A stretch of 64,000 nucleotides of DNA from assembly GCA_963681965.1 (NCBI GenBank), contig OY820579.1, forward strand, positions 1,088,001 to 1,152,000, in the 5' to 3' direction. The stretch's first letter is position 1, and each line of letters starts with the position of its first letter. Made by a program: the position numbers and the translations under genes. Below the pieces are notes generated by a model, which was not told the DNA's origin, searched no databases, and saw only the letters and a program-made list of their open reading frames with translations. Origin of the DNA: a bacterium (GTDB lineage Bacteria > Electryoneota > JAOADG01). Shown piece after piece: positions 44,128-64,000 of this stretch.

Positions 44128-44191
44128 TTGCAACGCAATTTTTTATATGCATTCATAGTGAATCATTAACATCTTGTCTTCGAGGGAAGTC

Positions 44192-44467
44192 ATGCAAATC
44201 GTCAAACTAAAAGATGGTTCATTCAGCTATCAAGGTCTTCCTGAAGAGGACTTTCGGATTCTGGAAAAGCTCGTCGAGAAGAACAGCACTGTAATGTTGT
44301 CCAATTACTTCTTGATCCAGCAAGCGATCGAGCTGGCATTGAATGAAGGAATCGAGAAACCTACGGTAAAAGAGATTCAAGAAATCGTCGACGAGCTGGA
44401 AGAGATGATGGAAGAAGAATTTACCGATTCGGAAGACGAAGCGGACGGGGAAGCGGAAAAGAAGTAA
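44192..44467 (+). CDS. Small acidic hypothetical protein
   Basis: 91-aa ORF, SD GAGGGA, strongly acidic C-terminus. Confidence 0.6.
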   Translation: MQIVKLKDGSFSYQGLPEEDFRILEKLVEKNSTVMLSNYFLIQQAIELALNEGIEKPTVKEIQEIVDELEEMMEEEFTDSEDEADGEAEKK

Positions 44468-44482
44468 CTGTGGCGGATTGAC

Positions 44483-44806
44483 ATGACTCGCGAACAGGCA
44501 CTTGATATTGCACGTGAATTGAAACGCCGCTTGGAACCCTTGTACGGCGACCGGTTGCAGCAGGTGATTGCGTATGGTTCGCAAATCCGCGGCGATGCAA
44601 CCGACGAGTCCGATCTCGATGTAGCGGTTTTGCTCGATCCATGTTTTGAGTTTGGAACTGAGTGGAATTTGGTCGCGAATGAATTAGTCGAGATGGGTAT
44701 CAAGAATAACGTTGTGATTGATACCAATTTTATTCCATTACAGGATTATAACACCGGAACTGAGGCATTGTATCGATCGATCCGAAGCGAAGGCGAAGTA
44801 TTATGA
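44483..44806 (+). CDS. Minimal nucleotidyltransferase (MNT) antitoxin, copy 1
   Basis: YGSQIRGD...SDLD motif. Confidence 0.9.
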   Translation: MTREQALDIARELKRRLEPLYGDRLQQVIAYGSQIRGDATDESDLDVAVLLDPCFEFGTEWNLVANELVEMGIKNNVVIDTNFIPLQDYNTGTEALYRSIRSEGEVL

Positions 44807-45180
44807 ATCCGGAGATCGAGCGTCATTTTGAACGAGCAGATTTGTTCTTAATTCGATCTGAGCATCATATTCAATGTGAGTTTTACGACGATTCGATTAA
44901 TCGTTCATACTATGCAATGTTCCATGCAATCACGGCACTGTTGCTGACAAGAAATATTGTGCGAAGTAAACACTCTGGTCTTATTGCATCATTCAATCAA
45001 AATTTTATTAAGTCCGGCGAATTCGATATTCGTTTCAGCGGAGTGGTACAAAAAGGTTTTGAGTTGCGTAACAAGAACGACTATTTATCAGCACCCATCA
45101 ATAATCTGGAAGACACGCAACAGTTATTGCACGATGCGAAAGACTTAGTGAAAGCGTGTCGGGAGTATTGCAACCGGTAG
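44803..45180 (+). CDS. HEPN domain protein (COG1895-like), copy 1
   Basis: NRSYYAMFH, SKHSG, R...DY; ATGA overlap with MNT. Confidence 0.9.
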   Translation: MNPEIERHFERADLFLIRSEHHIQCEFYDDSINRSYYAMFHAITALLLTRNIVRSKHSGLIASFNQNFIKSGEFDIRFSGVVQKGFELRNKNDYLSAPINNLEDTQQLLHDAKDLVKACREYCNR

Positions 45181-45237
45181 GAATTAACCCTTGCTTGCAT
45201 TCATGGTTTTATTAATCAATTGTATTGGTAAATTTTC

Positions 45238-45561
45238 ATGACTCGGGAAAATGCGCTAGAGATCGCACGAGAACTGAAACGCCGTCTGGAACCCTTGTAC
45301 GGCGACCGGTTGCAGCAGGTGATTGCGTATGGATCACAAATCCGCGGCGATGCCACCGATGAATCCGATCTCGATGTGGCAGTGGTTCTGTATCCGTGCG
45401 GCGATCAGTGGACTGAATGGACTGCCATTTCAGATTTACTGCTCGAACTCGATATGAAACTGAATGTTCTTTTGGATGTTTTTATCGTATCTCAGCAGGA
45501 ATTTGCGAATGGTACGTATGCTTTGCATCGAGAAATGAAACGTGAAGGTGTAGCGGCATGA
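45238..45561 (+). CDS. Minimal nucleotidyltransferase (MNT) antitoxin, copy 2
   Basis: YGSQIRGD...SDLD; N-terminal half near-identical to copy 1. Confidence 0.9.
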   Translation: MTRENALEIARELKRRLEPLYGDRLQQVIAYGSQIRGDATDESDLDVAVVLYPCGDQWTEWTAISDLLLELDMKLNVLLDVFIVSQQEFANGTYALHREMKREGVAA

Positions 45562-45935
45562 AAACCGAAGTCGAAGACTATCTCATTCGTGCTCGCGAGA
45601 CTCTGATCGAATCGAAATTTGCTCACGGTTCTCAGTTCTGGAATATGTCTGTCAATCGAAGTTATTATGCCATGTTTTATGCTGTGACCGCTGTATTACG
45701 AACAAAAGAAATTGTGAGAAGTAAACACTCGGGTTTGGTTTCGGCATTTATTGAGAATTTTGCGAATACTGGACTATTTGAAGTAAAATACGCGCAATCA
45801 CTGAATAAAGGGTTCAAGTTTCGCAATGTGAACGATTATGTTCAACATCCGATAGCGACTGAAGAAAATTCGAAATTGTTGTTAGAGGAAGCGATCGCGT
45901 TGGTAGAAAAATGTGAAGAGTATTGCAACCGGTAG
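45558..45935 (+). CDS. HEPN domain protein (COG1895-like), copy 2
   Basis: NRSYYAMF, SKHSG, R...DY; ATGA overlap with MNT. Confidence 0.9.
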   Translation: MKTEVEDYLIRARETLIESKFAHGSQFWNMSVNRSYYAMFYAVTAVLRTKEIVRSKHSGLVSAFIENFANTGLFEVKYAQSLNKGFKFRNVNDYVQHPIATEENSKLLLEEAIALVEKCEEYCNR

Positions 45936-45942
45936 TTGCTTA

Positions 45943-46060
45943 GGCAATTTGCCCGGAGGTGGGGCTTCAGCCCCGCCAAGTATGATCTTTAAATCGTTTT
46001 GGTTGGAGCGGTTCGCGAACCGCCCGTGTCAGGAAAATCTTGAGATCACAAATTGTGATC
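45943..46060. repeat. Cluster of four short palindromes (REP-like remnants)
   Basis: GGCAATTTGCC 45943-45953; GGTGGGGCTTCAGCCCCGCC 45958-45977; GAGCGGTTCGCGAACCGCCC 46006-46025; GATCACAAATTGTGATC 46044-46060. Confidence 0.6.
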
Positions 46061-46116
46061 GCAAAGTTCATTGGATTTGAATCTTTTCTTTCTGGTAGTT
46101 CTTTGAAATCATTACC

Positions 46117-46140
46117 GTAGGGGCGTATAGCAATACGCCC
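46117..46140 (+). repeat. GTAG-family REP, copy 1
   Basis: GTAG-GGGCGTAT-AGCA-ATACGCCC. Confidence 0.9.
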
Positions 46141-46199
46141 GAAATAAAATGAATAATACTTGCAAAGAAGTTCTATTTTATTGTTAGTAGGTTTGAATA

Positions 46200-46835
46200 G
46201 TGGCAAAAAGCAAATTAAAATTGATTGAAATAATCACAGTCATATTATCTGCAATTGCAATATTAGTTGCGGGTTACAGTGTATGGGTGACCAAACAAAC
46301 ATCGATAGAGACCGCTAAAATTGCTGAAAAAGTGGCTCGTGAAACTACCGAACTACAACTTAAAAAACAGATGGCACAATCGATATTTGATAAGTATTAC
46401 ACTTTGTTACCAAAAATAGATAACCTTAGAAAAAAGACAGAGAGCTTAAGAAATAGAATTAACGTAATGAATTCAGAGAGTATAACCGGGTTAAATATAG
46501 AGTACTTTGATGATGCGAGAATGAGTGAATTAGATTCTATTATTGGCAACATCGCAGCACAACTACCTTCGTTGAGCGATTCTGCTGAGATGAGAACAGT
46601 AAATTTATGTAAATCTCGTTTAGATACGATTAAATTTATTGTTGATGATCGATACAAAGTCATCTCTAACTATAGTGAACCAGTGAATCGAGAAAGAGCT
46701 GTTAAATTGTTTCCAATTGATGTTAAGAACATGTTGGGGTATTGTTCTGAAGTAGATAGTTGTTGTGATGCAATAGCCAAAAACTTGCGAAGCAAAAAGG
46801 ATTACATCGAGTTATCGTTAATGAGTAAACAGTAA
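46200..46835 (+). CDS. Low-GC orphan protein (N-terminal TM plus helical/coiled-coil domain), REP-bracketed
   Basis: 211-aa ORF, GTG start; a sampled 60-nt line is 18/60 GC. Confidence 0.7.
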   Translation: MAKSKLKLIEIITVILSAIAILVAGYSVWVTKQTSIETAKIAEKVARETTELQLKKQMAQSIFDKYYTLLPKIDNLRKKTESLRNRINVMNSESITGLNIEYFDDARMSELDSIIGNIAAQLPSLSDSAEMRTVNLCKSRLDTIKFIVDDRYKVISNYSEPVNRERAVKLFPIDVKNMLGYCSEVDSCCDAIAKNLRSKKDYIELSLMSKQ

Positions 46836-46854
46836 GAAGTGTTAGATAAAACCC

Positions 46855-46878
46855 GGGCGTATTGCCATACGCCCCTAC
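46855..46878 (-). repeat. GTAG-family REP, copy 2 (inverted)
   Basis: Reverse complement GTAG-GGGCGTAT-GGCA-ATACGCCC. Confidence 0.9.
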
Positions 46879-46931
46879 TGAGATTTGATAGAATTGGGCA
46901 AAGCTGTTGCCCGCGTGTGTATTGAGCAAAC

Positions 46932-46952
46932 AGGCATCATATATGCCTCTAC
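46932..46952 (-). repeat. Second-type GTAG hairpin (REP-like)
   Basis: Reverse complement GTAG-AGGCAT-ATATG-ATGCCT. Confidence 0.55.
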
Positions 46953-46973
46953 GAAGCAACGTAGGAATTGTAA

Positions 46974-48482
46974 ATGCAACTTAGACCAGATGAAATTACC
47001 TCGATCCTCAAGGAGCGAATCCTCTCCTTCGAATCGCAGGTGAAAATGGACGAAGTGGGGCGTGTCCTCACGGTGGGCGACGGTATCGCCCGCATCTACG
47101 GCCTTGAAAACTGCCTCGCCGGCGAATTGATCGAATTCCCGGGCGAAGTATACGGCATGGCGTTGAACCTCGAAGAAGACAATGTCGGCGTCGCGCTGTT
47201 CGGCAGCGACGAGAACATTAAAGAAGGCGACATTGTCAAACGCACCGGTCGCGTCGTCGACGTACCCGTCGGCCCCGAACTGTGCGGTCGCGTGGTCAAT
47301 CCACTCGGATTCCCGATCGACGGCAAAGGTCCCATCGACGCCAAGCAGCGCAACCCGGTCGAGCGTAAAGCCACCGGCGTTATCACGCGCCAGCCGGTGA
47401 AAGAGCCGCTGATGACCGGTATCAAAGCCATCGACGGTATGATCCCGATCGGTCGTGGACAACGCGAATTGATCATCGGCGACCGTGGTACCGGCAAGAC
47501 CGCTATCGCAGTCGACACGATCATCAATCAAAAAGGGCAGAACGTCTATTGCATCTACGTGGCAATCGGTCAGAAAGGCTCGACCATCGCCAAGGTGGTC
47601 AAGACGCTGCAGGATCACGGCGCAATGGAATACACTACGGTGATTTCCTCGACTGCCGTCGAAACTGCGCCGATTCAGTACATTGCCCCGTTCGCCGGTG
47701 CCGCCATGGGCGAGTATTTCCGCGACAAGGGTATGCACGCGCTGGTGATTTACGACGATCTTACCAAACACGCCTGGGCTTATCGCCAGTTGTCGTTGTT
47801 GCTCCGACGTCCACCGGGACGCGAAGCCTATCCGGGTGACGTGTTCTATCTGCACTCGCGCTTGCTCGAACGTGCGGCGAAGCTCTCCGATGCCCTTGGT
47901 GGCGGTTCGTTGACGGCACTCCCGATCATTGAAACGCAAGCCGGCGACGTTTCGGCGTACATTCCGACCAACGTGATTTCGATTACCGACGGTCAGATCT
48001 ACCTCGAACCCGACCTGTTCTATTCCGGCATTCGTCCGGCAGTAAACGTCGGTATTTCGGTTTCGCGAGTCGGTTCCAGTGCGCAATATCGCGCCATGCG
48101 CGCGGTCGCAGGGTCGATGCGACTCGACTTGGCACAATTCCGCGAACTGGCGGCATTTGCTCAATTCGGCAGCGATCTCGATGCTTCCACCAAACAGCAG
48201 TTGACACGCGGCGAGCATTTGACCGAATTGCTGAAGCAAGGTCAATACATGCCGTGGTCGCTCGAACGACAGGTGGCGATCATGTTTGCCGGAACGCAGG
48301 GTCTTGCCGATAATATTCCGATTTCGGCGTTGCGGAAATGGGAATCGGAAATCATCTCGTATCTCGAGAGCAATCATGGCGACTTGATGAAGGAAATCGT
48401 CGATACAAAGCTTTTGAATGAAGCGCTGAAGACCATGCTGAGAGCAGCGATCGAGTCGTTTAACACTACTTTTGTCGTGTAA
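46974..48482 (+). CDS. atpA: F1 ATP synthase subunit alpha
   Basis: GDRGTGKT Walker [23 protein letters not shown]. Confidence 0.98.
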
Positions 48483-48487
48483 TCGCT

Positions 48488-49351
48488 ATGCCATCACTCA
48501 AACAAATCAAACGGCGGATCAGCAGCGTTAAATCGACGCAACAGATCACCAAGGCGATGAAAATGATTGCCGCGGCGAAACTGCGCCGTGCCCAAAACAA
48601 CATGCTTTCGGCACGACCGTATTCGCACCGCTTGCGGGATACGATTGCCGAAATGGCGGCGCGCACGACCGAATCGCATCCACTGCTCGAAGTTCGTGAC
48701 CCGAAAAATGTCGGATTCGTCGTGGTTGCTTCGGATCGCGGTATGGCGGGCAGTTTCAATGCGAATGTGATCAAACATGCGGTTGCTGCCTACAAGCAGC
48801 ACGAAAATGCCGACAATCGCTACCTGATCACGGTAGGTCGCAAGACGACCGACTTTTTTACCAAGCGCGGGTACAACGTCATCTCCAAGCACCTCGATAT
48901 CTTCCCCGATCCGACGCTAGAGTCATCACGACGGATTGGTGAACGGATTATCGATCTGTACAAGATGGAGACGTTGGGTCTTGACCGGGTCTACTTGGTG
49001 TACAACGAATTCAAGAATGTTGCGCAGCAGCAAGTGATCGTCGAGCAACTGCTTCCGGTCGTTCCGGCAAAACTCGATAGCCCGATTCATCAGGATTTTG
49101 AATTCGAACCGGATCCCATGACGATTCTCGATGTCATTCTTCCACAATATATCGATGTGGAAATCTGGCATGTACTGCTGGAATCGTTTGCCGCGGAAAT
49201 GGCGGCGCGAATGACGGCGATGGAGAATGCGACCAAGGCGGCGACCGATCTAATCAAGTCGTTGACGCTGCAATACAACAAAGCGCGGCAGGGAGCGATC
49301 ACGAAGGAGCTGCTCGAAATTGTCGGCGGCGCCGAGGCGTTGAAGGGGTAA
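48488..49351 (+). CDS. atpG: F1 ATP synthase subunit gamma
   Basis: ITKAMKMIAAAK, ARMTAMENAT, ARQGAITKELLEIVGGA. Confidence 0.97.
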   Translation: MPSLKQIKRRISSVKSTQQITKAMKMIAAAKLRRAQNNMLSARPYSHRLRDTIAEMAARTTESHPLLEVRDPKNVGFVVVASDRGMAGSFNANVIKHAVAAYKQHENADNRYLITVGRKTTDFFTKRGYNVISKHLDIFPDPTLESSRRIGERIIDLYKMETLGLDRVYLVYNEFKNVAQQQVIVEQLLPVVPAKLDSPIHQDFEFEPDPMTILDVILPQYIDVEIWHVLLESFAAEMAARMTAMENATKAATDLIKSLTLQYNKARQGAITKELLEIVGGAEALKG

Positions 49352-49385
49352 GGTTTAGCACCCTTTCACTGTTGGAGTAGAAGGA

Positions 49386-49793
49386 ATGCTGGAAGTCACG
49401 CATCTCGAACGGGCAATCAAGTCTTTAGAAGAAGGCATCGAATTGTTCGAAAGGAGTCGGACTCTCGACTCAATCACACAAGAAGCGATTCGAGACGGAG
49501 TTATTCAGCGTTTTGAATTTACATATGAATTGTGCTGGAAGTCTTTGAAGCGTTTTCTTGTTATTTTTGGAGCCGATATACCTCCATCAATGACAATGAA
49601 AGACATTTATCGAGTCGGATTTGAGCGTGACTTGATTCGTGATGCGGAGTTGTGGTTCGGTTATATGAAGTACCGAAACCTCTCGTCTCACACGTACGAC
49701 TCGGAGACTGCAGAAGAGGTATATAGTCATATTGCAGATTTCCTTGTCGATGCCAACTATTTGTTGAATCGCTTGAAAGCGATCGAACAATGA
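49386..49793 (+). CDS. HI0074-family nucleotidyltransferase substrate-binding/HEPN protein
   Basis: RDGVIQRFEFTYELCWK and intact R-X4-H motif RNLSSHTY. Confidence 0.92.
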   Translation: MLEVTHLERAIKSLEEGIELFERSRTLDSITQEAIRDGVIQRFEFTYELCWKSLKRFLVIFGADIPPSMTMKDIYRVGFERDLIRDAELWFGYMKYRNLSSHTYDSETAEEVYSHIADFLVDANYLLNRLKAIEQ

Positions 49794-50074
49794 TCGACAT
49801 CTCGGAGAAGCATCTGGAGATTGTCAAGGCAATCCTTCGCGAATGGTTGCCAAATTACGAAATTCAAGCATTTGGATCGCGAGTAACTGGTAAGGCGAAA
49901 CCGTATTCCGATCTTGATTTGGCAATCGTCTCGGATGAACGAGTGCCGTTTCGGCAAATTGCGATGGCGTGTGCGGCATTCACCGACTCCGATCTCCCGT
50001 TTCGAGTCGATCTAGTAGAACGGTGTAAAATCAAGGATTTTCCTATTGAACCGACGGAAGTGATAGTCATGTAG
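49790..50074 (+). CDS. Minimal nucleotidyltransferase (HI0073-like MNT)
   Basis: FGSRVTG...SDLDL, SDLPFRVDLV; ATGA overlap. Confidence 0.92.
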   Translation: MIDISEKHLEIVKAILREWLPNYEIQAFGSRVTGKAKPYSDLDLAIVSDERVPFRQIAMACAAFTDSDLPFRVDLVERCKIKDFPIEPTEVIVM

Positions 50075-50075
50075 T

Positions 50076-50243
50076 TTTCTGTGTCAATCGTGTGGTAGAA
50101 GTCCGGTAACCTATTCAGGTATCGAATTGCACGTCGATCACAAGATTCCGTTTTCGCTGGGTGGAAGAACAATCACCGAGAACTTAGAAACGAAGTGTTC
50201 GGATTGTAATTTGGGTAAGAGAAATCGATTTATTGAACAGTAG
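50076..50243 (+). pseudogene. 5'-truncated HNH endonuclease remnant (not in ORF track)
   Basis: Reads FLCQSCGRSPVTYSGIELHVDHKIPFSLGGRTITENLETKCSDCNLGKRNRFIEQ*; in-frame TAG at 50064-50066 and no ATG. Confidence 0.85.
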
Positions 50244-50263
50244 GGGCGTATGGCAATACGCCC
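50240..50263 (+). repeat. GTAG-family REP, copy 3
   Basis: GTAG-GGGCGTAT-GGCA-ATACGCCC. Confidence 0.9.
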
Positions 50264-50276
50264 GCATCTTGTGAGC

Positions 50277-50804
50277 ATGGAAAACAAGAGCCATTTCATT
50301 CAACGTCAATCGATGCGTCAATCCATTTTGGATTATTCGGTGGGGTTCTTTTTCATCACAATTTGTACGGATCGACGCCGGTGCTATCTTTGTCGCATTC
50401 GCAACGATGAAGTCGCACATAGTTGGATTGGTCAAATCGTCGAAGAAGAGTTGAAAAAATCGACCTTGATCCGATCCGAATTGATCCTTGACAAGTATGT
50501 AATCATGCCGAATCATCTTCACATGATCTTAGGCATGAATCGCGATATTCCATTTGGATCAATCAAAAGCTTTACATCGCCTGCCAAAAATTTTGGCGCG
50601 TTTATTCGTACTTTGAAAGCGGTGACAACAAGACAGATTCGAGAACGAATCGGAAAATCCGATTTCATCTTATGGCAAAGGAACTTCTACGATCACAGCA
50701 TTCGGAATGAGGACGATTATCGCAAAACGATTCAATACATCGATCTGAATCCATCGAGATGGAGTTGTGATCGAGAGAATCCGGTTTTGATTGGAAGAGA
50801 ATAA
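50277..50804 (+). mobile_element. REP-associated tyrosine transposase (RAYT, Y1 HUH family)
   Basis: FFITICT, HUH motif MPNHLH, WQRNFYDHSIR, catalytic YI..NP..W; flanked by inverted REPs. Confidence 0.9.
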
Positions 50805-50818
50805 AGAATTCAGAGAAC

Positions 50819-50842
50819 GGGCGTATTGCCATACGCCCCTAC
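50819..50842 (-). repeat. GTAG-family REP, copy 4 (inverted)
   Basis: Reverse complement GTAG-GGGCGTAT-GGCA-ATACGCCC. Confidence 0.9.
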
Positions 50843-50889
50843 TGAATAGCGAGATCGCTAGTCAGAATTTCATGATCGATCGTGCGAAA

Positions 50890-52669
<1,780 letters not shown>

Positions 52670-55488: not shown

Positions 55489-58400
55489 ATGCTTCGCCAA
55501 CAGCCGAATCGTTTGTCGATAGCAATAATCACCGGAATACTCTTGTTATGTATCGGGAGCGTGTATTCAGCTACTCCTGCAGCACCTGCTGCTGGTACTG
55601 AAACAGCTCGCGATACTGCTTATGTCAAACAATGGCAACAAGAGCGTTTAGTGATCGAACGACAAATTAGCGAGCTTTCGCGAGTCGCTTCTTCCCAATT
55701 GTCGGATCCAAACTCCCCGGCATCCAGAAGAGTAACCGATCTTCGCGATCGCCTCAGTGCGATCGATCTGAAAATTAAGGTTCTTGAGTGGAATGCGTTA
55801 CCAATCGATTCATTATTGGCAATGGAAACCAATTTCCGCAAGGAAAAAGAAGCAGTTAACGAGCAATATCGTGCTACCTGGAAAGCCTACATCGGAAAAG
55901 CGGAACAGTTTCTGATTAATTGGAATAAAGACCCGAGCTTTCAGGCTTTGCGCGGTAAAAAAGAAGCGAACGCCGATCTATTGGCTCAAGTTACTTTGCG
56001 GTTAGCGGAGCTTTATGCAATTCAGGCTGTTGATACGTTTGGTTTGTTACAGGAAAAATGGTTAGCATCCGGTGCTCCCGCGAGTATGGAACCAAAGCTT
56101 GATTTTGGCAAAGCGGAGCAGATGTACCGAACCGTGTTAACGGAATATCCCAATTCTCAATGGGCTTCTGATGCTTTATATAGCTTAGCATACATCCGGG
56201 GTGAAGAAGGCGAACAACTCGAACAACCGGCACTTGCCAGTCAAAAACGAGAAGAATCAAAATCGAAGTATCAGACCTTATTGAATGACTATGCCGACAG
56301 TAAATACCGGGAAGACGCGATGTTTGCACTCGGTAAATACTGGTTGGTAACGCCGCCGAAAGGTATTCCAATTAAACAGCAGTTGGACTCGGCACAGCAT
56401 TACTTTAGTCAAATTTTATTGACCCCTGAATCGAAACGAAGCAAAGACGCACTCTACATGTTGGGGTGGACTGCTTTTCGCCGACCCGATTATCCGACAG
56501 CGCTGGATTATTTCGTCCGCACAATCAATTTTGATTATGAACGCGTAGCGACAGAAGATACAATTGGAAGCGCACGGTTCAATCAAGACGCTATTGCCTA
56601 CATGGCTGAAATCTTCTCGGAACCAGTCAGAACCTGGGATGGCGCTGGCGTTGCCAAGGCAATCGAGTTTGTTGGCAGTGATACGATTAAGCTAGAGCGC
56701 TTCGGCATCAAAATGCTCGAATTGATTGGCGATCGCAATCAAAAAGTATTGAATGAGTACGACTCCGCAATTTACGTCTGGAAGGGTGCGATTACATTAG
56801 CACCGATGCATGCCCGGGCACCGTTTATTCAGCAGAAGATTGTTGAGTCTGCGTTGAACGATAAACATGACATGAATCTCTGGTTTGCCGAGGGCAAAAC
56901 CCAATTCACCAACTATCGGATTGAAAGCGACTGGTGGAAATCAAACCGGAAATTGTCGCTGCGTAAAGAAGTGAAACCGATTGTCCGTGATACCTACAAT
57001 CGCGTCGTTGCTTATGCCGTCGATCGATCGATCAACAAAGACCGACCTGATTTCAATCCCAAGATGGCGGAAGAAGCCGCGCTCGTGAGTGCGGAATATG
57101 TTAAAGCGTTCCCGTCGGATAGTATGGCGTACGAATGGAATTTCCAATTGGCGAACCTGTTAGCCAACACGCCTAATAAATCCGAAGCAGCCTACGCCGA
57201 GTACAAGAACGTAGTTGGTAATAAGCTGTATACGAAATACAAACAACCGGCAGCGCAACAAATGCTCGCAGTTGCTGACGAAATGGCTACGAACGATGAG
57301 AAAACTCGTCCCTTCACTCCGTTCGGCAGCGATACAACAACTGGTTTACCAGTAGCAACAGTTGACTCCCTTACTCCCGGTGAAATGTTACTAGCCAATG
57401 CCGCAAACGAATATGCGACGATGTTTTCCGATGATAAATCGATTTCTCCTGCTTATTTATACAAGGCTGGAAGAATCAATTATCAGCGTGGTCAAATTGC
57501 AGCAGCAAACAGCTTCTTCGATCAGATAATTACGAAGTATCCGCAGACCAAGGTGACTGAACGTGCATATCAACTATATGTAGAAGGATATCTTGTTCAG
57601 CGGGATTTCGCCAATGCGGAGCGCTTGACCAAGGAAATTCAAACATCCTCGGTCAGCGATACTTTGAAGCGATTTGCTCAGGAACGTCGTGCCGCAGCAA
57701 TCTTCTCGTCGGCTACGATTGCATCGAACACTGCCGATGTCGCAGTGGCAGATACTGCCGCGACCGAGCAGAGCAAAACCGACCGGAAAGCGCAATTTGA
57801 AAAGGCTGGCGACGATTACGTTCGGGTCGTTACTGAAATTCCCGACTTTAAAGATGCCGATATGGCGTTGGAGAACGCTGCAGTCTCTTACCGAAAAGCC
57901 GAAAAGCCGGAAAAGGAAATCGATGCTTACATGATGTTGGCGCAGCGCTTCCCGTCTTCGAAACGTACGCCACGAGCACTGTTTAATGCCGGTTTGATTT
58001 ATCAAAATGAACTTAAGAAACCGCTTGATGCCGCCAAGACCTTCGACCGGTTGGTTACATCCTATCCCGAAGGTGAACACGATGTAAAGCAAGCGATGAT
58101 TAATGCATCTTACAACTTCGAAGCGGCTCAGGATTATGCCGACGCAGTTCGAATTAATCAGCGATTTGCCGACAAATATACTGGCGATGAAGTCGCGACA
58201 GCACTGCTGTTTAAATCTGCTGCCTTGTATTTGAAGATGGGTGATGTCGCTGCCGCAAACCGTATTTACGATGATTTCTCGCGCAAGTATCCGGATCATC
58301 CGAATGCGATTTTGGCGAATTACGAACGTGGTAAATATGCGCAGGAACATGGCGATCTAGCTCAAGCGAAAAACGAGTATTCTGCCGCAGTCAATCGCCA

Positions 58401-61221
58401 CAGCACGTTGGTGAAGGCTGGTAAGCCGGGTAATCCCGAATATGCATCGAAATCGTTAGCACAATTGGTTACTTGGGATTTGGATAAATACAAAGCAATT
58501 CAGTATAGCTGGCTGGATAAATCTGCTGAAGGCGCGACTGAGCGCAAGGAAAAAGCGAAGCAACACGATGCAATTTACGAGCAGATTAAAACCTTGGTTG
58601 AATTTGGACAACCGGAACAGTTTGCTGCGCTTTACTGGGCGGGTGAGGTTGAAGAGAACTTAGGTACAACCTATCTCAACCAAAAAATGCCAAAGATAAC
58701 GAAGCCGGAAGACGAATTCTTCAAGCGTCGCGACGTTATTTATAGTACGATTCAGATTTATGTCAAGGCAGTAAACGAGTACGCATCGTCGTTGAAGCGC
58801 TTCGAACAAACGATCAAAGCATTGGAAGAGTTCCAAGCTAGCCGTGCTTCGGCTCGTGATGCATTGCAATCGTGGATCGATGCGAATACCATTTCAGCAC
58901 CAGCGGGACTTTCCGATTCTACTACTGTGCTGGATGGAATAAAGAAAGGTATCGGCAGACTTGATGCCGCATTGACTGAAGCCAGACGGTGGCAAAGTGC
59001 TACCCGCGAAAAAGCACCGGAATTAGCCAATCGCGCAGCCAGTCTAAAAGCTGAAATCTTCCGAATGGCATTGGCACTACCTGATGCCGCAGTGCCGCGC
59101 CTCGATCCGTTGGTCGGTCGCGCTTTGTACCGACAGCAAGTGTTGCGCGATGTCGTTGGTCCGTCGACAAAGGATTTATTTGACGATTATCTAGCGGCAA
59201 TTCAAGTTGCACGCGACGCCGGATTTGAAGAAAAATGGGCAGTTCCGGCACGCGAAAGCATGAGAAATGCACTGGATACGATGATGCAAGCTGCCAGTGA
59301 ATTGAACAACCGCTGGTTCACCGTATTCGAGAAAGATCACAACGCGTTACAGGAATTGTTACCAAAGGGTCCGAATGGACGCGATAGATTGAATCGCGAC
59401 GTGTTGTATTACACTGCCGAAATGATGCAGGTCATCGAATTTTACGGTGGTGAAAAAGGCGTTTCCAGCTTAATGAATATTCTGATGGATAGTCTTTTCG
59501 TGAAGATCGCCAAAGATGCGCCGGGTATACCAACTCTCCAACCAGCGATCGACCAAGTGGTCACATGGTATTTGAGAGAGTCCGATCGCGCAGAACAATT
59601 CTTCAATGTGGCGAAAACTGCTGAAGCAACGGCACGAGAGAAAGCGAAGGAAACGAACGAGCAGCAGTATACCGACGCTTTTACCGGTTACGAAACTGTT
59701 AAGTTGACCTTCCAACAACAAAATCGCGATCTGTTGACTTCCATCTACGACTTGGCAGAGCGGAACGGATTGAAATCTGCACAGATGCAGCCAGTATTGC
59801 AGAAGCTTGCAGTGATCGATCCGGAAACTTACGGACCGAAGATTGGTTTGCAGTTGACTGAAAATTGGATCGGTTCAGATGATAGCTGGATTGGAATTGA
59901 CCATCCGGTAGATAATTTCCAAGAACCGAATCTTGACGTTTCAAATTGGAAATATGTCGATGCAGTAAGCCAGATTGATGCTCCGCTAGATAGTTTTACT
60001 GTAGCGAAAGCTATTCCTGTTTCCACATTCCGACCGGGTGAACCATCAAAAGCCGGAAAGCATTGGTATCGTAAATCTGTTTGGATTCCCGAACGAGTTA
60101 CAATGGCTGAAGTCCGCGTGATCGCTGCCGGTAAAGTATCGATCTATGTGAATAAGGACTTCATCAGCGAAACACCTGAGGGCGCGGATTGGAAAGCACC
60201 GATTATTCAAGATGTATCTGCTCAAGTCAAACCCGGATACAACGTTATTGCGTTCGAAGTTGCCGACAGTCTGAATACAGGTGGATTTCTGGTCGCAGCG
60301 ATGAAATATCGAACTGTGCCCGGTTCGGTGACTCCGGTATTGCCGGAACCGCCGAATGCGATTACAATCCAAAAGGTAGGTAAGAATATTGAGGTGACTG
60401 CGCCGGCTCAGACACCACCGGTTCAAGAAACTCCAGCACCTGCTCCGGCAGAAACGCCTGCAGCAACGCCACCGGCTCAAGAGACTCCGGCACCGGCACC
60501 GGTTGAAACTCCGGCAGCAACGCCACCGGCTCAAGAGACCCCGGCACCGGTCGAAACTCCGGCAGCAACGCCACCAGCTCAAGAGACTCCGGCACCGGCA
60601 CCGGTCGAAACTCCGGCAGCAACGCCACCGGCTCAAGAGACTCCGGCACCGGCACCGGTCGAAACTCCGGCAGCAACGCCACCAGCTCAAGAGACTCCGG
60701 CACCGGCACCGGTCGAAACTCCGGCAGCAACGCCACCGGCTCAAGAGACCCCGGCACCTGCACCGGTTGAAACTCCGGCAGCAACGCCACCGGCTCAAGA
60801 GACTCCGGCACCGGCACCGTTTGAAACTCCGGCAGTAACGCCGCCGGCTCAAGAGACACCGGCACCTGCACCGGTCGAAATTCCGGCAGCAACGCCACCG
60901 GCTCAAGAGACCCCGGCACCTGCACCGGTCGAAACTCCGGCAGTGACGCCACCGGCTCAAGAGACTCCGGCACCTGCTCCGGTTGAAACTCCGGCAGCAA
61001 CGCCACCGGCTCAAGAGACTCCGGCACCTGCTCCGGTTGAAACTCCGGCAGCAACGCCACCGGCTCAAGAGACTCCGGCACCTGCTCCGGTTGAAACTCC
61101 GGCACCAGTTCCGACTGAACCATCTGTTCCAGTAGTAACACCGGAACAAACGCCACCTGCGACTGTTCCGGTAGTACCGGATACGACTAATCAGGCTGTT
61201 CCGGATACGACTAAGAAGTAA
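55489..61221 (+). CDS. Giant secreted TPR protein (GltD/AgmK-like) with jelly-roll domain and Pro/Ala/Thr repeat tail
   Basis: 1910 aa, signal peptide, many YPxS...ALY/ALF TPR units, WYRK...IYVN...GYNVIAFEV domain, 18-aa repeats. Confidence 0.8.
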   Translation: MLRQQPNRLSIAIITGILLLCIGSVYSATPAAPAAGTETARDTAYVKQWQQERLVIERQISELSRVASSQLSDPNSPASRRVTDLRDRLSAIDLKIKVLEWNALPIDSLLAMETNFRKEKEAVNEQYRATWKAYIGKAEQFLINWNKDPSFQALRGKKEANADLLAQVTLRLAELYAIQAVDTFGLLQEKWLASGAPASMEPKLDFGKAEQMYRTVLTEYPNSQWASDALYSLAYIRGEEGEQLEQPALASQKREESKSKYQTLLNDYADSKYREDAMFALGKYWLVTPPKGIPIKQQLDSAQHYFSQILLTPESKRSKDALYMLGWTAFRRPDYPTALDYFVRTINFDYERVATEDTIGSARFNQDAIAYMAEIFSEPVRTWDGAGVAKAIEFVGSDTIKLERFGIKMLELIGDRNQKVLNEYDSAIYVWKGAITLAPMHARAPFIQQKIVESALNDKHDMNLWFAEGKTQFTNYRIESDWWKSNRKLSLRKEVKPIVRDTYNRVVAYAVDRSINKDRPDFNPKMAEEAALVSAEYVKAFPSDSMAYEWNFQLANLLANTPNKSEAAYAEYKNVVGNKLYTKYKQPAAQQMLAVADEMATNDEKTRPFTPFGSDTTTGLPVATVDSLTPGEMLLANAANEYATMFSDDKSISPAYLYKAGRINYQRGQIAAANSFFDQIITKYPQTKVTERAYQLYVEGYLVQRDFANAERLTKEIQTSSVSDTLKRFAQERRAAAIFSSATIASNTADVAVADTAATEQSKTDRKAQFEKAGDDYVRVVTEIPDFKDADMALENAAVSYRKAEKPEKEIDAYMMLAQRFPSSKRTPRALFNAGLIYQNELKKPLDAAKTFDRLVTSYPEGEHDVKQAMINASYNFEAAQDYADAVRINQRFADKYTGDEVATALLFKSAALYLKMGDVAAANRIYDDFSRKYPDHPNAILANYERGKYAQEHGDLAQAKNEYSAAVNRHSTLVKAGKPGNPEYASKSLAQLVTWDLDKYKAIQYSWLDKSAEGATERKEKAKQHDAIYEQIKTLVEFGQPEQFAALYWAGEVEENLGTTYLNQKMPKITKPEDEFFKRRDVIYSTIQIYVKAVNEYASSLKRFEQTIKALEEFQASRASARDALQSWIDANTISAPAGLSDSTTVLDGIKKGIGRLDAALTEARRWQSATREKAPELANRAASLKAEIFRMALALPDAAVPRLDPLVGRALYRQQVLRDVVGPSTKDLFDDYLAAIQVARDAGFEEKWAVPARESMRNALDTMMQAASELNNRWFTVFEKDHNALQELLPKGPNGRDRLNRDVLYYTAEMMQVIEFYGGEKGVSSLMNILMDSLFVKIAKDAPGIPTLQPAIDQVVTWYLRESDRAEQFFNVAKTAEATAREKAKETNEQQYTDAFTGYETVKLTFQQQNRDLLTSIYDLAERNGLKSAQMQPVLQKLAVIDPETYGPKIGLQLTENWIGSDDSWIGIDHPVDNFQEPNLDVSNWKYVDAVSQIDAPLDSFTVAKAIPVSTFRPGEPSKAGKHWYRKSVWIPERVTMAEVRVIAAGKVSIYVNKDFISETPEGADWKAPIIQDVSAQVKPGYNVIAFEVADSLNTGGFLVAAMKYRTVPGSVTPVLPEPPNAITIQKVGKNIEVTAPAQTPPVQETPAPAPAETPAATPPAQETPAPAPVETPAATPPAQETPAPVETPAATPPAQETPAPAPVETPAATPPAQETPAPAPVETPAATPPAQETPAPAPVETPAATPPAQETPAPAPVETPAATPPAQETPAPAPFETPAVTPPAQETPAPAPVEIPAATPPAQETPAPAPVETPAVTPPAQETPAPAPVETPAATPPAQETPAPAPVETPAATPPAQETPAPAPVETPAPVPTEPSVPVVTPEQTPPATVPVVPDTTNQAVPDTTKK
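60412..61107 (+). repeat. Intragenic 54-bp tandem repeat, about 12 copies (VETPAATPPAQETPAPAP)
   Basis: Directly visible 54-nt period; one 48-nt unit. Confidence 0.95.
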
Positions 61222-61262
61222 TCGTTTTACTGATTGACCTCATTCCAGAGGGGAGTTTATAT

Positions 61263-63540: not shown

Positions 63541-64000
63541 ATGGCGACAAACACGATGGTATTTCCGAAGGAATTCGAACGCCATTTCCTGAAGGATTTG
63601 GATAAAGAACTTCTCGGAATAATCGTAGTTCTCTATTCTATATGTTTGATCGGTTGTACGGTCATGTCGCAAATTGACCTGAACATCACCGAACAAGACA
63701 TTTCGATTCCCGGTTTGCCACCTGTTACCGTTCCGACCAATGTCGAAGTTACAAAACAGATGTCGACTCCGGAACCAAAAGCACCGGTTACTGTTAGCGA
63801 TGCTGGTGAAGCAACTGGTGGTAAAGGTGGTACTGGTGGAGCCGATCACGGTGCTGTATTGGGTAATGTCAAAGCTGGTGCTGCAAAAGGTTATGCTGCT
63901 GTAGGTGCAGTTGGTGTCTTCCGTCAAGCCGGTGGCGGCGGTGGCGGCGGCGGTGGTGGCTTTGGTGGCGGCGGCGGCGGTTTTGGCGGCGGCGCTGGCA
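63541..64000 (+). CDS. TonB-like/GltG (AgmX-PglI)-like protein, truncated by window end
   Basis: MATNTMVFPKEFER N-terminus, single TM, Pro- then Gly-rich linker; open to the end of the window; follows exbB-exbD-exbD. Confidence 0.6.
   Translation, partial: MATNTMVFPKEFERHFLKDLDKELLGIIVVLYSICLIGCTVMSQIDLNITEQDISIPGLPPVTVPTNVEVTKQMSTPEPKAPVTVSDAGEATGGKGGTGGADHGAVLGNVKAGAAKGYAAVGAVGVFRQAGGGGGGGGGGFGGGGGGFGGGAG

Follow-up and report, generated by a model that had tools for sequence, protein, structure and literature searches.

The window analysed here is a stretch of 64,000 nucleotides (nt) from a bacterium of the Electryoneota lineage (contig OY820579.1, positions 1,088,001 to 1,152,000). Within its F1Fo ATP synthase operon lies a REPtron, a gene for a REP-associated tyrosine transposase (RAYT, also called TnpA(REP)) enclosed by an inverted pair of repetitive extragenic palindromic (REP) sequences. 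A second inverted pair of the same REP encloses an orphan gene, and these two segments are called here the RAYT unit and the orphan unit. The REPtron is an already known kind of unit, and the one in the window is a divergent new member of that kind. For the second pair, our favoured reading, which we hold at about an even chance, is local multiplication of the REP beside the RAYT gene into the two largest upstream non-coding gaps, which flank a horizontally acquired orphan. The RAYT would be the maker of the extra REP copies, it would have acted locally, and the orphan would have arrived independently. No result indicates that the orphan unit ever moved as a cassette.

Four REP sites were found in the 64 kb with the pattern GTAG-GGGCGTAT-NGCA-ATACGCCC. 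REP copy 1 (46117..46140, + strand) has a GTAG foot, an 8-bp stem made of GGGCGTAT/ATACGCCC and the loop AGCA. REP copy 2 (46855..46878, - strand) has the loop GGCA on its own strand and begins 19 nt past the stop codon of the orphan. The TAG of REP copy 3 (50240..50263, + strand) is the stop codon of an upstream HNH remnant, and REP copy 4 (50819..50842, - strand) begins 14 nt past the stop codon of the RAYT gene. A search with the 20-mer core and up to 3 mismatches gave 4 sites against 0.01 expected from 100 shuffles; they were counted as 8 strand-matches because the core is nearly palindromic. When 4 mismatches were allowed, the 64-kb scan returned no further site. No half-site was present in the window either, as the 12-mer GTAGGGGCGTAT with up to one mismatch returned the same four sites.

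Copies 2, 3 and 4 are identical across 27 nt (CAGTAGGGGCGTATGGCAATACGCCCG), and copy 1 deviates by an A for G in the loop and also at the base two before GTAG. Both pairs are inverted with GTAG outward, and each is made of one REP family. The arms of REP1 and REP2 are 25 nt long and 96% complementary, and those of REP3 and REP4 are 27 nt long and 100% complementary. Each REP is a complete hairpin, not a half, with an 8-bp stem and a 4-nt loop (–9 kcal/mol as single-stranded DNA (ssDNA); z –3.1 to –4.1). The first-pass annotation had proposed four copies, 23-24/24 identical, at these positions and with this geometry. The pattern and mismatch scans matched the positions and the outward GTAG exactly, and the identity was correct. 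The unit lengths that it gave, 762 nt for 46117-46878 and 603 nt for 50240-50842, were also as claimed, and the enclosed genes are indeed a Y1/HUH RAYT-like open reading frame (ORF) in one unit and a low-GC ORF of 211 amino acids (aa) in the other.

The RAYT unit (50240..50842, 603 nt) has REP3 and REP4 as its arms. The RAYT/TnpA(REP)-like gene (50277..50804, + strand) codes for 175 aa with the motifs NHLH, WQ and YIDLNP; an alternative ATG at 50250, inside REP3, would give 184 aa. The ATG at 50277 lies 13 nt from the end of REP3, and the spacing on the other side, from stop codon to REP4, is nearly the same. A REPtron is marked by GT[AG]G-footed hairpins that lie within 1 kb of the gene on either side, and they are found here. 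The motifs of the RAYT class were read from the translation, namely HUH (NHLH) and the class 2 tyrosine motif Y---NP (YIDLNP); the class motifs of TnpAY1 proteins are defined in section 15 of PMC6006769. The protein matched the NCBIfam family REP_Tyr_transpos (NF047646) with an E-value of 7.7e-19 and 68 bits, under the cut-off of 80, and the Pfam family Y1_Tnp (PF01797) with 21.7 bits, just under the cut-off of 23. Against our own profile of 120 homologs, which contains the window protein itself, the score was 206.6 bits. At E ≤ 0.001, 662 of 718 scored candidates were homologous, and several of them are named 'REP element-mobilizing transposase RayT'. The identity of the window protein to any of the 120 homologs listed is at most 43%. 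Judged from its sequence, the window RAYT is a divergent member of the RAYT/TnpA(REP) family.

An ungapped alignment with E. coli TnpA(REP) (4er8) showed that the W, Q, D/E, H, R and the Y of Y---NP are kept. The residues contacting the GTAG guide in the E. coli protein, W94, Q95, E100, H101 and R104, correspond to W, Q, D, H and R in the window protein. A D in place of E is reported for subclasses 2.5 and 2.7 in a section of PMC6006769. The RAYT thus aligned looks catalytically intact. By its motifs, which fit the entry for that subclass in Table 1 of PMC6006769, the RAYT unit resembles TnpAY1 subclass 2.4, which is Bertels group 4. The pertinent passages of PMC6006769 describe this subclass by NH[IFV]H, WQ and YIxNNP, by long, 'double-foot' REPs and by REPs in frame inside the gene, and give its range as Cyanobacteria, Bacteroidetes and various phyla. 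The internal REP and the double-foot REPs are missing in the window gene, whose REPs are single-foot. The same source, in the portion concerned, calls the in-gene REP predominant, not universal, for subclass 2.4.

The orphan unit (46117..46878, 762 nt) is bounded by REP1 and REP2 with GTAG outward and has a 714-nt coding interior of 32.9% GC. The 1-kb flanks have 43.6% and 56.4% GC, and the window has 47%. The orphan ORF (46200..46835, + strand) codes for 211 aa from a GTG start and has no family and no credible homolog. The bracket is tight, with 59 nt on the REP1 side and 19 nt on the REP2 side. The low-GC stretch runs about 70 nt beyond REP1, outside the unit; therefore, the composition gives no sharp left boundary. 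When the 714-nt interior was shuffled 2000 times, no stop-free frame came up to the 212 codons of the real one, the largest being 133. The ORF is real or very recently real.

Homologs of the orphan were sought in several collections. A word-indexed protein search returned the orphan itself alone among 228 candidates, and a full HMMER search against 1.84 billion representative proteins returned itself and one 1124-aa protein, a eukaryotic protein with BRCA2 repeats, which was rejected as spurious. Nothing was found with tblastn against 50,697 phage records or against the 127 listed loci carrying the REP in other genomes, and no match was obtained in Pfam or NCBIfam. A weak PADLOC match to DruC (21 bits, E 2e-5) and matches to PHROGs families of unknown function (E ≥ 4e-4) were treated as coiled-coil noise. 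None of the nearest ESM Atlas clusters has a name, and the best score among them is 0.90. The protein has a hydrophobic N-terminal helix and is predicted to be all-helical by single-sequence AlphaFold (pLDDT 79), and the fold of this model matches only generic helical bundles (E ≥ 0.018). The most that can be said is that the orphan would be, on this prediction, a membrane-anchored helical protein.

The unit around the orphan was seen once, with no second copy in the proteins or the DNA searched. It lacks a transposase and a target duplication, and apart from the REPs it has no terminal repeats. No relic of a RAYT gene was detected in any frame of 46100-46900, where the best non-RAYT hits had E ≥ 0.46. 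Beyond the REP of 25-27 nt, no sequence is common to the two units. A direct repeat of 33 nt at 73% (46033-46065 and 50898-50930), with its copies 51 nt beyond REP1 and 55 nt beyond REP4 on the outer side, was set aside as probably due to chance because at least 60 such families exist in the window.

The operon around both units consists of atpB-E-F-H, atpA-G and atpD-C. The genes atpB, E, F and H extend to 44127, atpA and atpG occupy 46974-49351, and atpD and atpC follow from about 51134. The two internal gaps of the operon have been filled with selfish and accessory genes, one of which is the RAYT gene with its cognate GTAG-hairpin REP on each side. In the favoured reading, single REPs would have been copied by the same RAYT close to home, into gaps of 264 nt and 138 nt. 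These gaps border the orphan, which would have been acquired horizontally; the bracket would be a by-product of the available non-coding DNA, and the orphan would not be carried by the REPs. Toward the 5' side of the RAYT unit, the gaps are 34 nt between atpG and the HEPN gene and 5 nt between atpA and atpG, and the next upstream gaps of at least 40 nt are exactly the two beside the orphan. In Marinomonas, REPs cluster near tnpA(REP), and this is described in a passage of PMC8266576 as a recent arrival followed by multiplication nearby. From what is reported for REPs in general, the processing of the operon's mRNA may also be influenced by the REP hairpins that precede atpA and atpD.

Several points weigh against local multiplication as the source of the bracket. 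At first, the REP is scarce, with only four copies in 64 kb and none across the other 59 kb. Second, five gaps that measure 40 nt or more lie within 6 kb of the RAYT gene; two extra REPs falling among them at random would flank one gene in about 1/10 of pairings, and about 1/4 of these would also have the GTAG-outward arrangement, which by our own after-the-fact estimate makes a joint chance of a few per cent. Third, the orphan gene, at the 32.9% GC given above, is the region's most compositionally foreign stretch. REP2 is the same as REP3 and REP4 over the 27 nt, and both right-hand REPs sit 14-19 nt past a stop codon. Also, a thermodynamic ssDNA fold of the whole orphan unit is predicted to pair REP1 with REP2 and so to close the unit. 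Finally, according to parts of PMC3333891, a gene between REPs has been precisely lost in some E. coli strains and other strains have hicAB replacing the REPtron; therefore, the content of a REP slot can change.

The same REP was then considered in other genomes. A genome scan with 20 fixed bases and the four loop bases free matched at least 127 stretches, and the figures given below hold among the matches listed, which do not include the genome that the window comes from. The hosts include Cyanobacteria, Chloroflexota, Planctomycetota, candidate phyla radiation (CPR) groups, Atribacterota, Zixibacteria, Omnitrophota, Gallionella, Bacteroidota and others. Such a spread of the same 20 fixed bases across phyla is unusually wide for a REP sequence. 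After three overlapping loci were removed, at least 141 distinct REP sites were counted, of which 75 have a single foot and 66 are full 28-nt double-foot palindromes. TGCA is the loop seen most often (54 sites), and GGCA and AGCA occur 15 and 9 times; the most frequent form overall is the perfect 28-nt palindrome with loop TGCA. A RAYT-like ORF lies within 2 kb of the REP in 5 of 80 long-flank loci, of which two overlap and one is weak. Among 103 neighbouring ORFs scanned against Pfam, most are housekeeping genes (for example LysRS, LexA, MreB, AtpC, RNase Y, IspH, PntAB and thiolase), and mobile or defence genes are few (Uma2 twice, HicB once and NERD/UvrD once). The REPs elsewhere are thus mostly alone amid housekeeping genes, and therefore this REP behaves as a classical dispersed intergenic one. 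A 2.44-Mb Salinibacteraceae contig has at least 3 exact sites, and those listed are all within 2.3 kb of its RAYT gene.

An exact REP stands in frame within the RAYT ORF just past the HUH motif at three loci (L026, L083 and L002) whose proteins are homologs of the window RAYT, and it is translated as RGVLQYAPT or RGVWPYAPT. This was dropped as a novelty, having already been described for subclass 2.4 in a section of PMC6006769.

Pairs of this REP also occur elsewhere. A second REP (up to 3 mismatches) was found 0.4-2 kb away in 7 of 77 non-redundant long loci listed. The bracketed segments hold a flavodiiron-type protein (L030), a Fic protein (L068), a MOSC protein (L033), an unnamed 309-aa ORF (L042), two pilin-like ORFs beside a RAYT gene (L002), a small ORF (L036) and no clear ORF (L061). 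None of the seven consists of a RAYT gene, the third REP of L002 being inside the adjacent RAYT ORF, and tblastn detected nothing like the orphan in them. In most of the seven cases, the GC of the interior is at or between the values of the two flanks. Single-gene brackets thus arise around native genes, as is expected when REPs occupy neighbouring intergenic gaps.

Longer units with this REP were observed as well. A conserved non-coding unit of about 190 nt, which opens with the REP and contains CCCCTCCCC/GGGGAGGGG palindromes in abundance, is present in at least 4 loci of 3 Anaerolineae-type genomes (L037:1817-2028, L025:18-204, L085 and L111) at 75-92% identity, and it looks like a REP-associated miniature element. 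REP-associated units of 80-180 nt, also non-coding, were seen in cyanobacteria and in an Omnitrophota genome. In one Firestonebacteria genome, the REP lies about 30 nt ahead of each start codon in L032:225-596 and L074:1655-2031. The 377 nt common to these two loci at 78% were rejected as REP cargo and read as a gene duplication of P-II-like paralogs, a call made by eye from the translation.

Three other explanations of the orphan unit have to be weighed. The first is that of the first-pass annotation, in which the 762-nt unit is a non-autonomous cargo REPIN, an inverted REP doublet whose ends the RAYT would process in trans, moving or exchanging a gene cassette. We regard this as an unlikely reading. 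The orphan unit shares the GTAG-outward geometry and the near-identical REPs of the RAYT unit, its bracket of 59 nt and 19 nt is tight, its interior is foreign in composition (32.9% GC), and the enclosed gene is an orphan ORF (ORFan). The REP is rare in the window (4 in 64 kb), the RAYT appears intact in its catalytic residues, and the predicted ssDNA fold shuts the unit by a REP1:REP2 stem. The recurrence of the 190-nt non-coding units in at least 4 loci of 3 Anaerolineae genomes also favours it; therefore, segments longer than a bare REP do propagate in this REP family. However, the unit was seen only once, and the collections searched yielded neither another copy nor a relative of the cargo. 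No subterminal sequence is common to the two units, and none of the 7 REP pairs examined elsewhere among the matches listed encloses a GC-foreign gene. The two ends would need recognition on opposite strands, and the enzymes studied neither bind nor cut the inverse REP strand according to passages of PMC8266576 and PMC3333891. The same passages give no evidence that tnpA(REP) moves and state that REPtrons seem not to transpose as units. Besides, the known REPIN spacers are 34-110 bp in passages and Table 2 of PMC3337134.

Of the interpretation given in the first pass, the assignment of copies 3 and 4 with their gene to a REPtron stands, and the movement of a cargo REPIN by the RAYT is a proposal. 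The cargo-cassette reading is neither refuted nor supported, and we consider it improbable on balance. Its wider form would make the REPtron slot a general gene holder, with a RAYT that excises, replaces or moves a coding interior and with 46117-46878 as the first coding REPIN, an ORFan-carrying cassette; this too is doubtful. No report of a coding REPIN or of a RAYT-moved gene was found in the papers searched on RAYTs, REPINs and REPtrons, although Figure S10 and Table S1 of PMC6006769 may list further cases.

In the second explanation, what originally lay between REP1 and REP2 was a RAYT gene, or nothing; foreign DNA later took the place of the interior through recombination at the REPs, and the unit as a whole never transposed. 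We think it quite unlikely that the slot was converted in this way. A precedent is found in E. coli, where the available sections of PMC3333891 describe tnpA(REP) precisely excised from between BIMEs (bacterial interspersed mosaic elements) in 7 strains and the REPtron replaced by hicA-hicB in 24 strains; but that replacement took the flanking BIMEs too. In the window, REP edges are module junctions, since the RAYT unit abuts a HicB-like ORF and its TAG ends the HNH remnant. On the other hand, no RAYT remnant remains in any frame of 46100-46900, and one would have to assume in addition that a second REPtron once lay 3.4 kb from the first.

The third explanation, insertion of the orphan DNA between the halves of an older GTAG-outward pair or double-foot REP upstream of atpA, is very unlikely, for although the 28-nt double-foot palindrome (66 of 141 sites among the matches listed) is called the commonest form elsewhere, could be derived from an inverted dimer by central deletion (a passage of PMC6006769), and REPs are reported as insertion sequence targets (a passage of PMC1525189), the orphan unit lacks a transposase, its own terminal repeats and a target duplication, and each window REP is a whole hairpin.

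The remaining genes in the two operon gaps are accessory, and all are co-oriented with the operon. In the atpH-atpA gap (44128-46973, 2.85 kb), the orphan unit is preceded by an acidic ORF of 97 aa and by two MNT/HEPN pairs, and this ORF and the two toxin-antitoxin pairs together form the insert between atpH and REP1 (44174..45935, + strand). The atpG-atpD gap (49352-51133, 1.8 kb) holds a HEPN-like/MNT pair, the HNH remnant, the RAYT unit and the HicB-like ORF. In it, the insert between atpG and REP3 (49386..50243, + strand) is made of the HEPN-like (NTase_sub_bind) and MNT pair and then the 55-aa HNH remnant. The three toxin-antitoxin pairs of MNT/HEPN type lie at 44483-45180, 45238-45935 and 49386-50074, and the first two are a diverged tandem duplication (167 nt at 84%, spaced by 755 nt). 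The HNH remnant (50076-50243) has no start codon, begins right past the MNT stop and is ended by the TAG of REP3. It matched weakly the HNH region of IscB in NCBIfam (E 1.4e-5, 24 bits, cut-off 175) and had restriction-enzyme matches in PADLOC. The HicB-like ORF (50791..51180, + strand) is directly past REP4 and overlaps the atpD start, with no hicA seen. At a cyanobacterial locus (L035), a HicB gene (1427-1786) lies about 215 nt from the same REP, and the neighbourhood of REP/RAYT and hicAB may be recurrent.

Two more strong GC-rich hairpins (45958-45977 and 46006-46025) stand between the HEPN stop codon and REP1; each occurs once in the window, and both lack a GTAG foot. Promoter and terminator scans performed no better than on shuffles. 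The nearest records to the AtpA encoded here share 84-89% identity with it, and Calditrichota, KSB1 and Zixibacteria come next at about 72%. Elsewhere in the window, thirteen tandem 54-nt units at 60331-61242 encode the Pro/Thr-rich C-terminus of a 1910-aa TPR-type protein (55489-61221), and GGC/GCC-rich glycine-codon repeats lie near the window ends on opposite strands (832-904 and 63930-63999).

The usual view of RAYTs is that of domesticated enzymes whose role is confined to the upkeep of short non-coding repeats. If the orphan unit were shown to move or to be exchanged, it would add a route of gene capture through single-strand hairpin ends, and it would also give a handle on the spread of REPs. 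For now, the main value of the locus is as a compact and clean case of a divergent REPtron, and it illustrates how the spacers of an essential operon fill with selfish genes while the operon stays unbroken.

Among known systems, integron cassettes resemble the orphan unit in that a promoterless ORF is tied to a hairpin-forming site recognised as ssDNA. They differ in having one attC each, the tyrosine recombinase IntI and an attI platform, none of which is present in the window. The end hairpins of IS200/IS605 elements are distinct and read on the same strand (IS608), whereas the window ends are one hairpin inverted. These elements also have a Y---Q motif and are multi-copy, whereas the window RAYT has Y---NP (YIDLNP) and one copy in the window, and against transpos_IS200 of NCBIfam it scored 19.5 bits with a cut-off of 55. 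The likeness lies in the Y1 HUH enzyme, the ssDNA chemistry and the hairpins near the ends, and IS200/IS605 elements can carry a second gene such as tnpB, so that a coding interior there is not the transposase alone (passages of PMC6006769).

REPINs (Bertels and Rainey 2011; parts of PMC3116915 and PMC3337134) are similar to the orphan unit in their inverted REPs of one family with ends that can pair in ssDNA, and their mobilisation is attributed to a single-copy RAYT that acts in trans. Those of P. fluorescens SBW25 have a non-coding, hairpin-forming spacer of 34-110 bp and tens to hundreds of copies (a section of PMC3337134), whereas the orphan unit has a 714-nt spacer coding for 211 aa and was seen in one copy. 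The REPtrons Ma and Mb of Marinomonas sp. MWYL1 (Corneloup et al. 2021, parts of PMC8266576) have their REPs concentrated beside tnpA(REP) instead of genome-wide, and in the window likewise the four copies all lie within 4.7 kb. They differ in belonging to RAYT groups 2 and 3 with other REPs, and those parts describe no foreign-gene bracket. The closest system is the REPtron of subclass 2.4 (Quentin et al. 2018, PMC6006769), which is RAYT group 4 of Bertels et al. 2017. Unlike it, the window gene has NHLH, no internal REP and single-foot REPs, and its product falls below the family cut-offs, with at most 43% identity among the homologs listed, and is encoded inside an ATP synthase operon. As in the subclass 2.4 units described in sections of PMC6006769, the window unit has a Y1 HUH protein with NHxH, WQ and Y---NP and long GTAG-footed hairpins inverted on both sides of the gene, together with a patchy spread over phyla.

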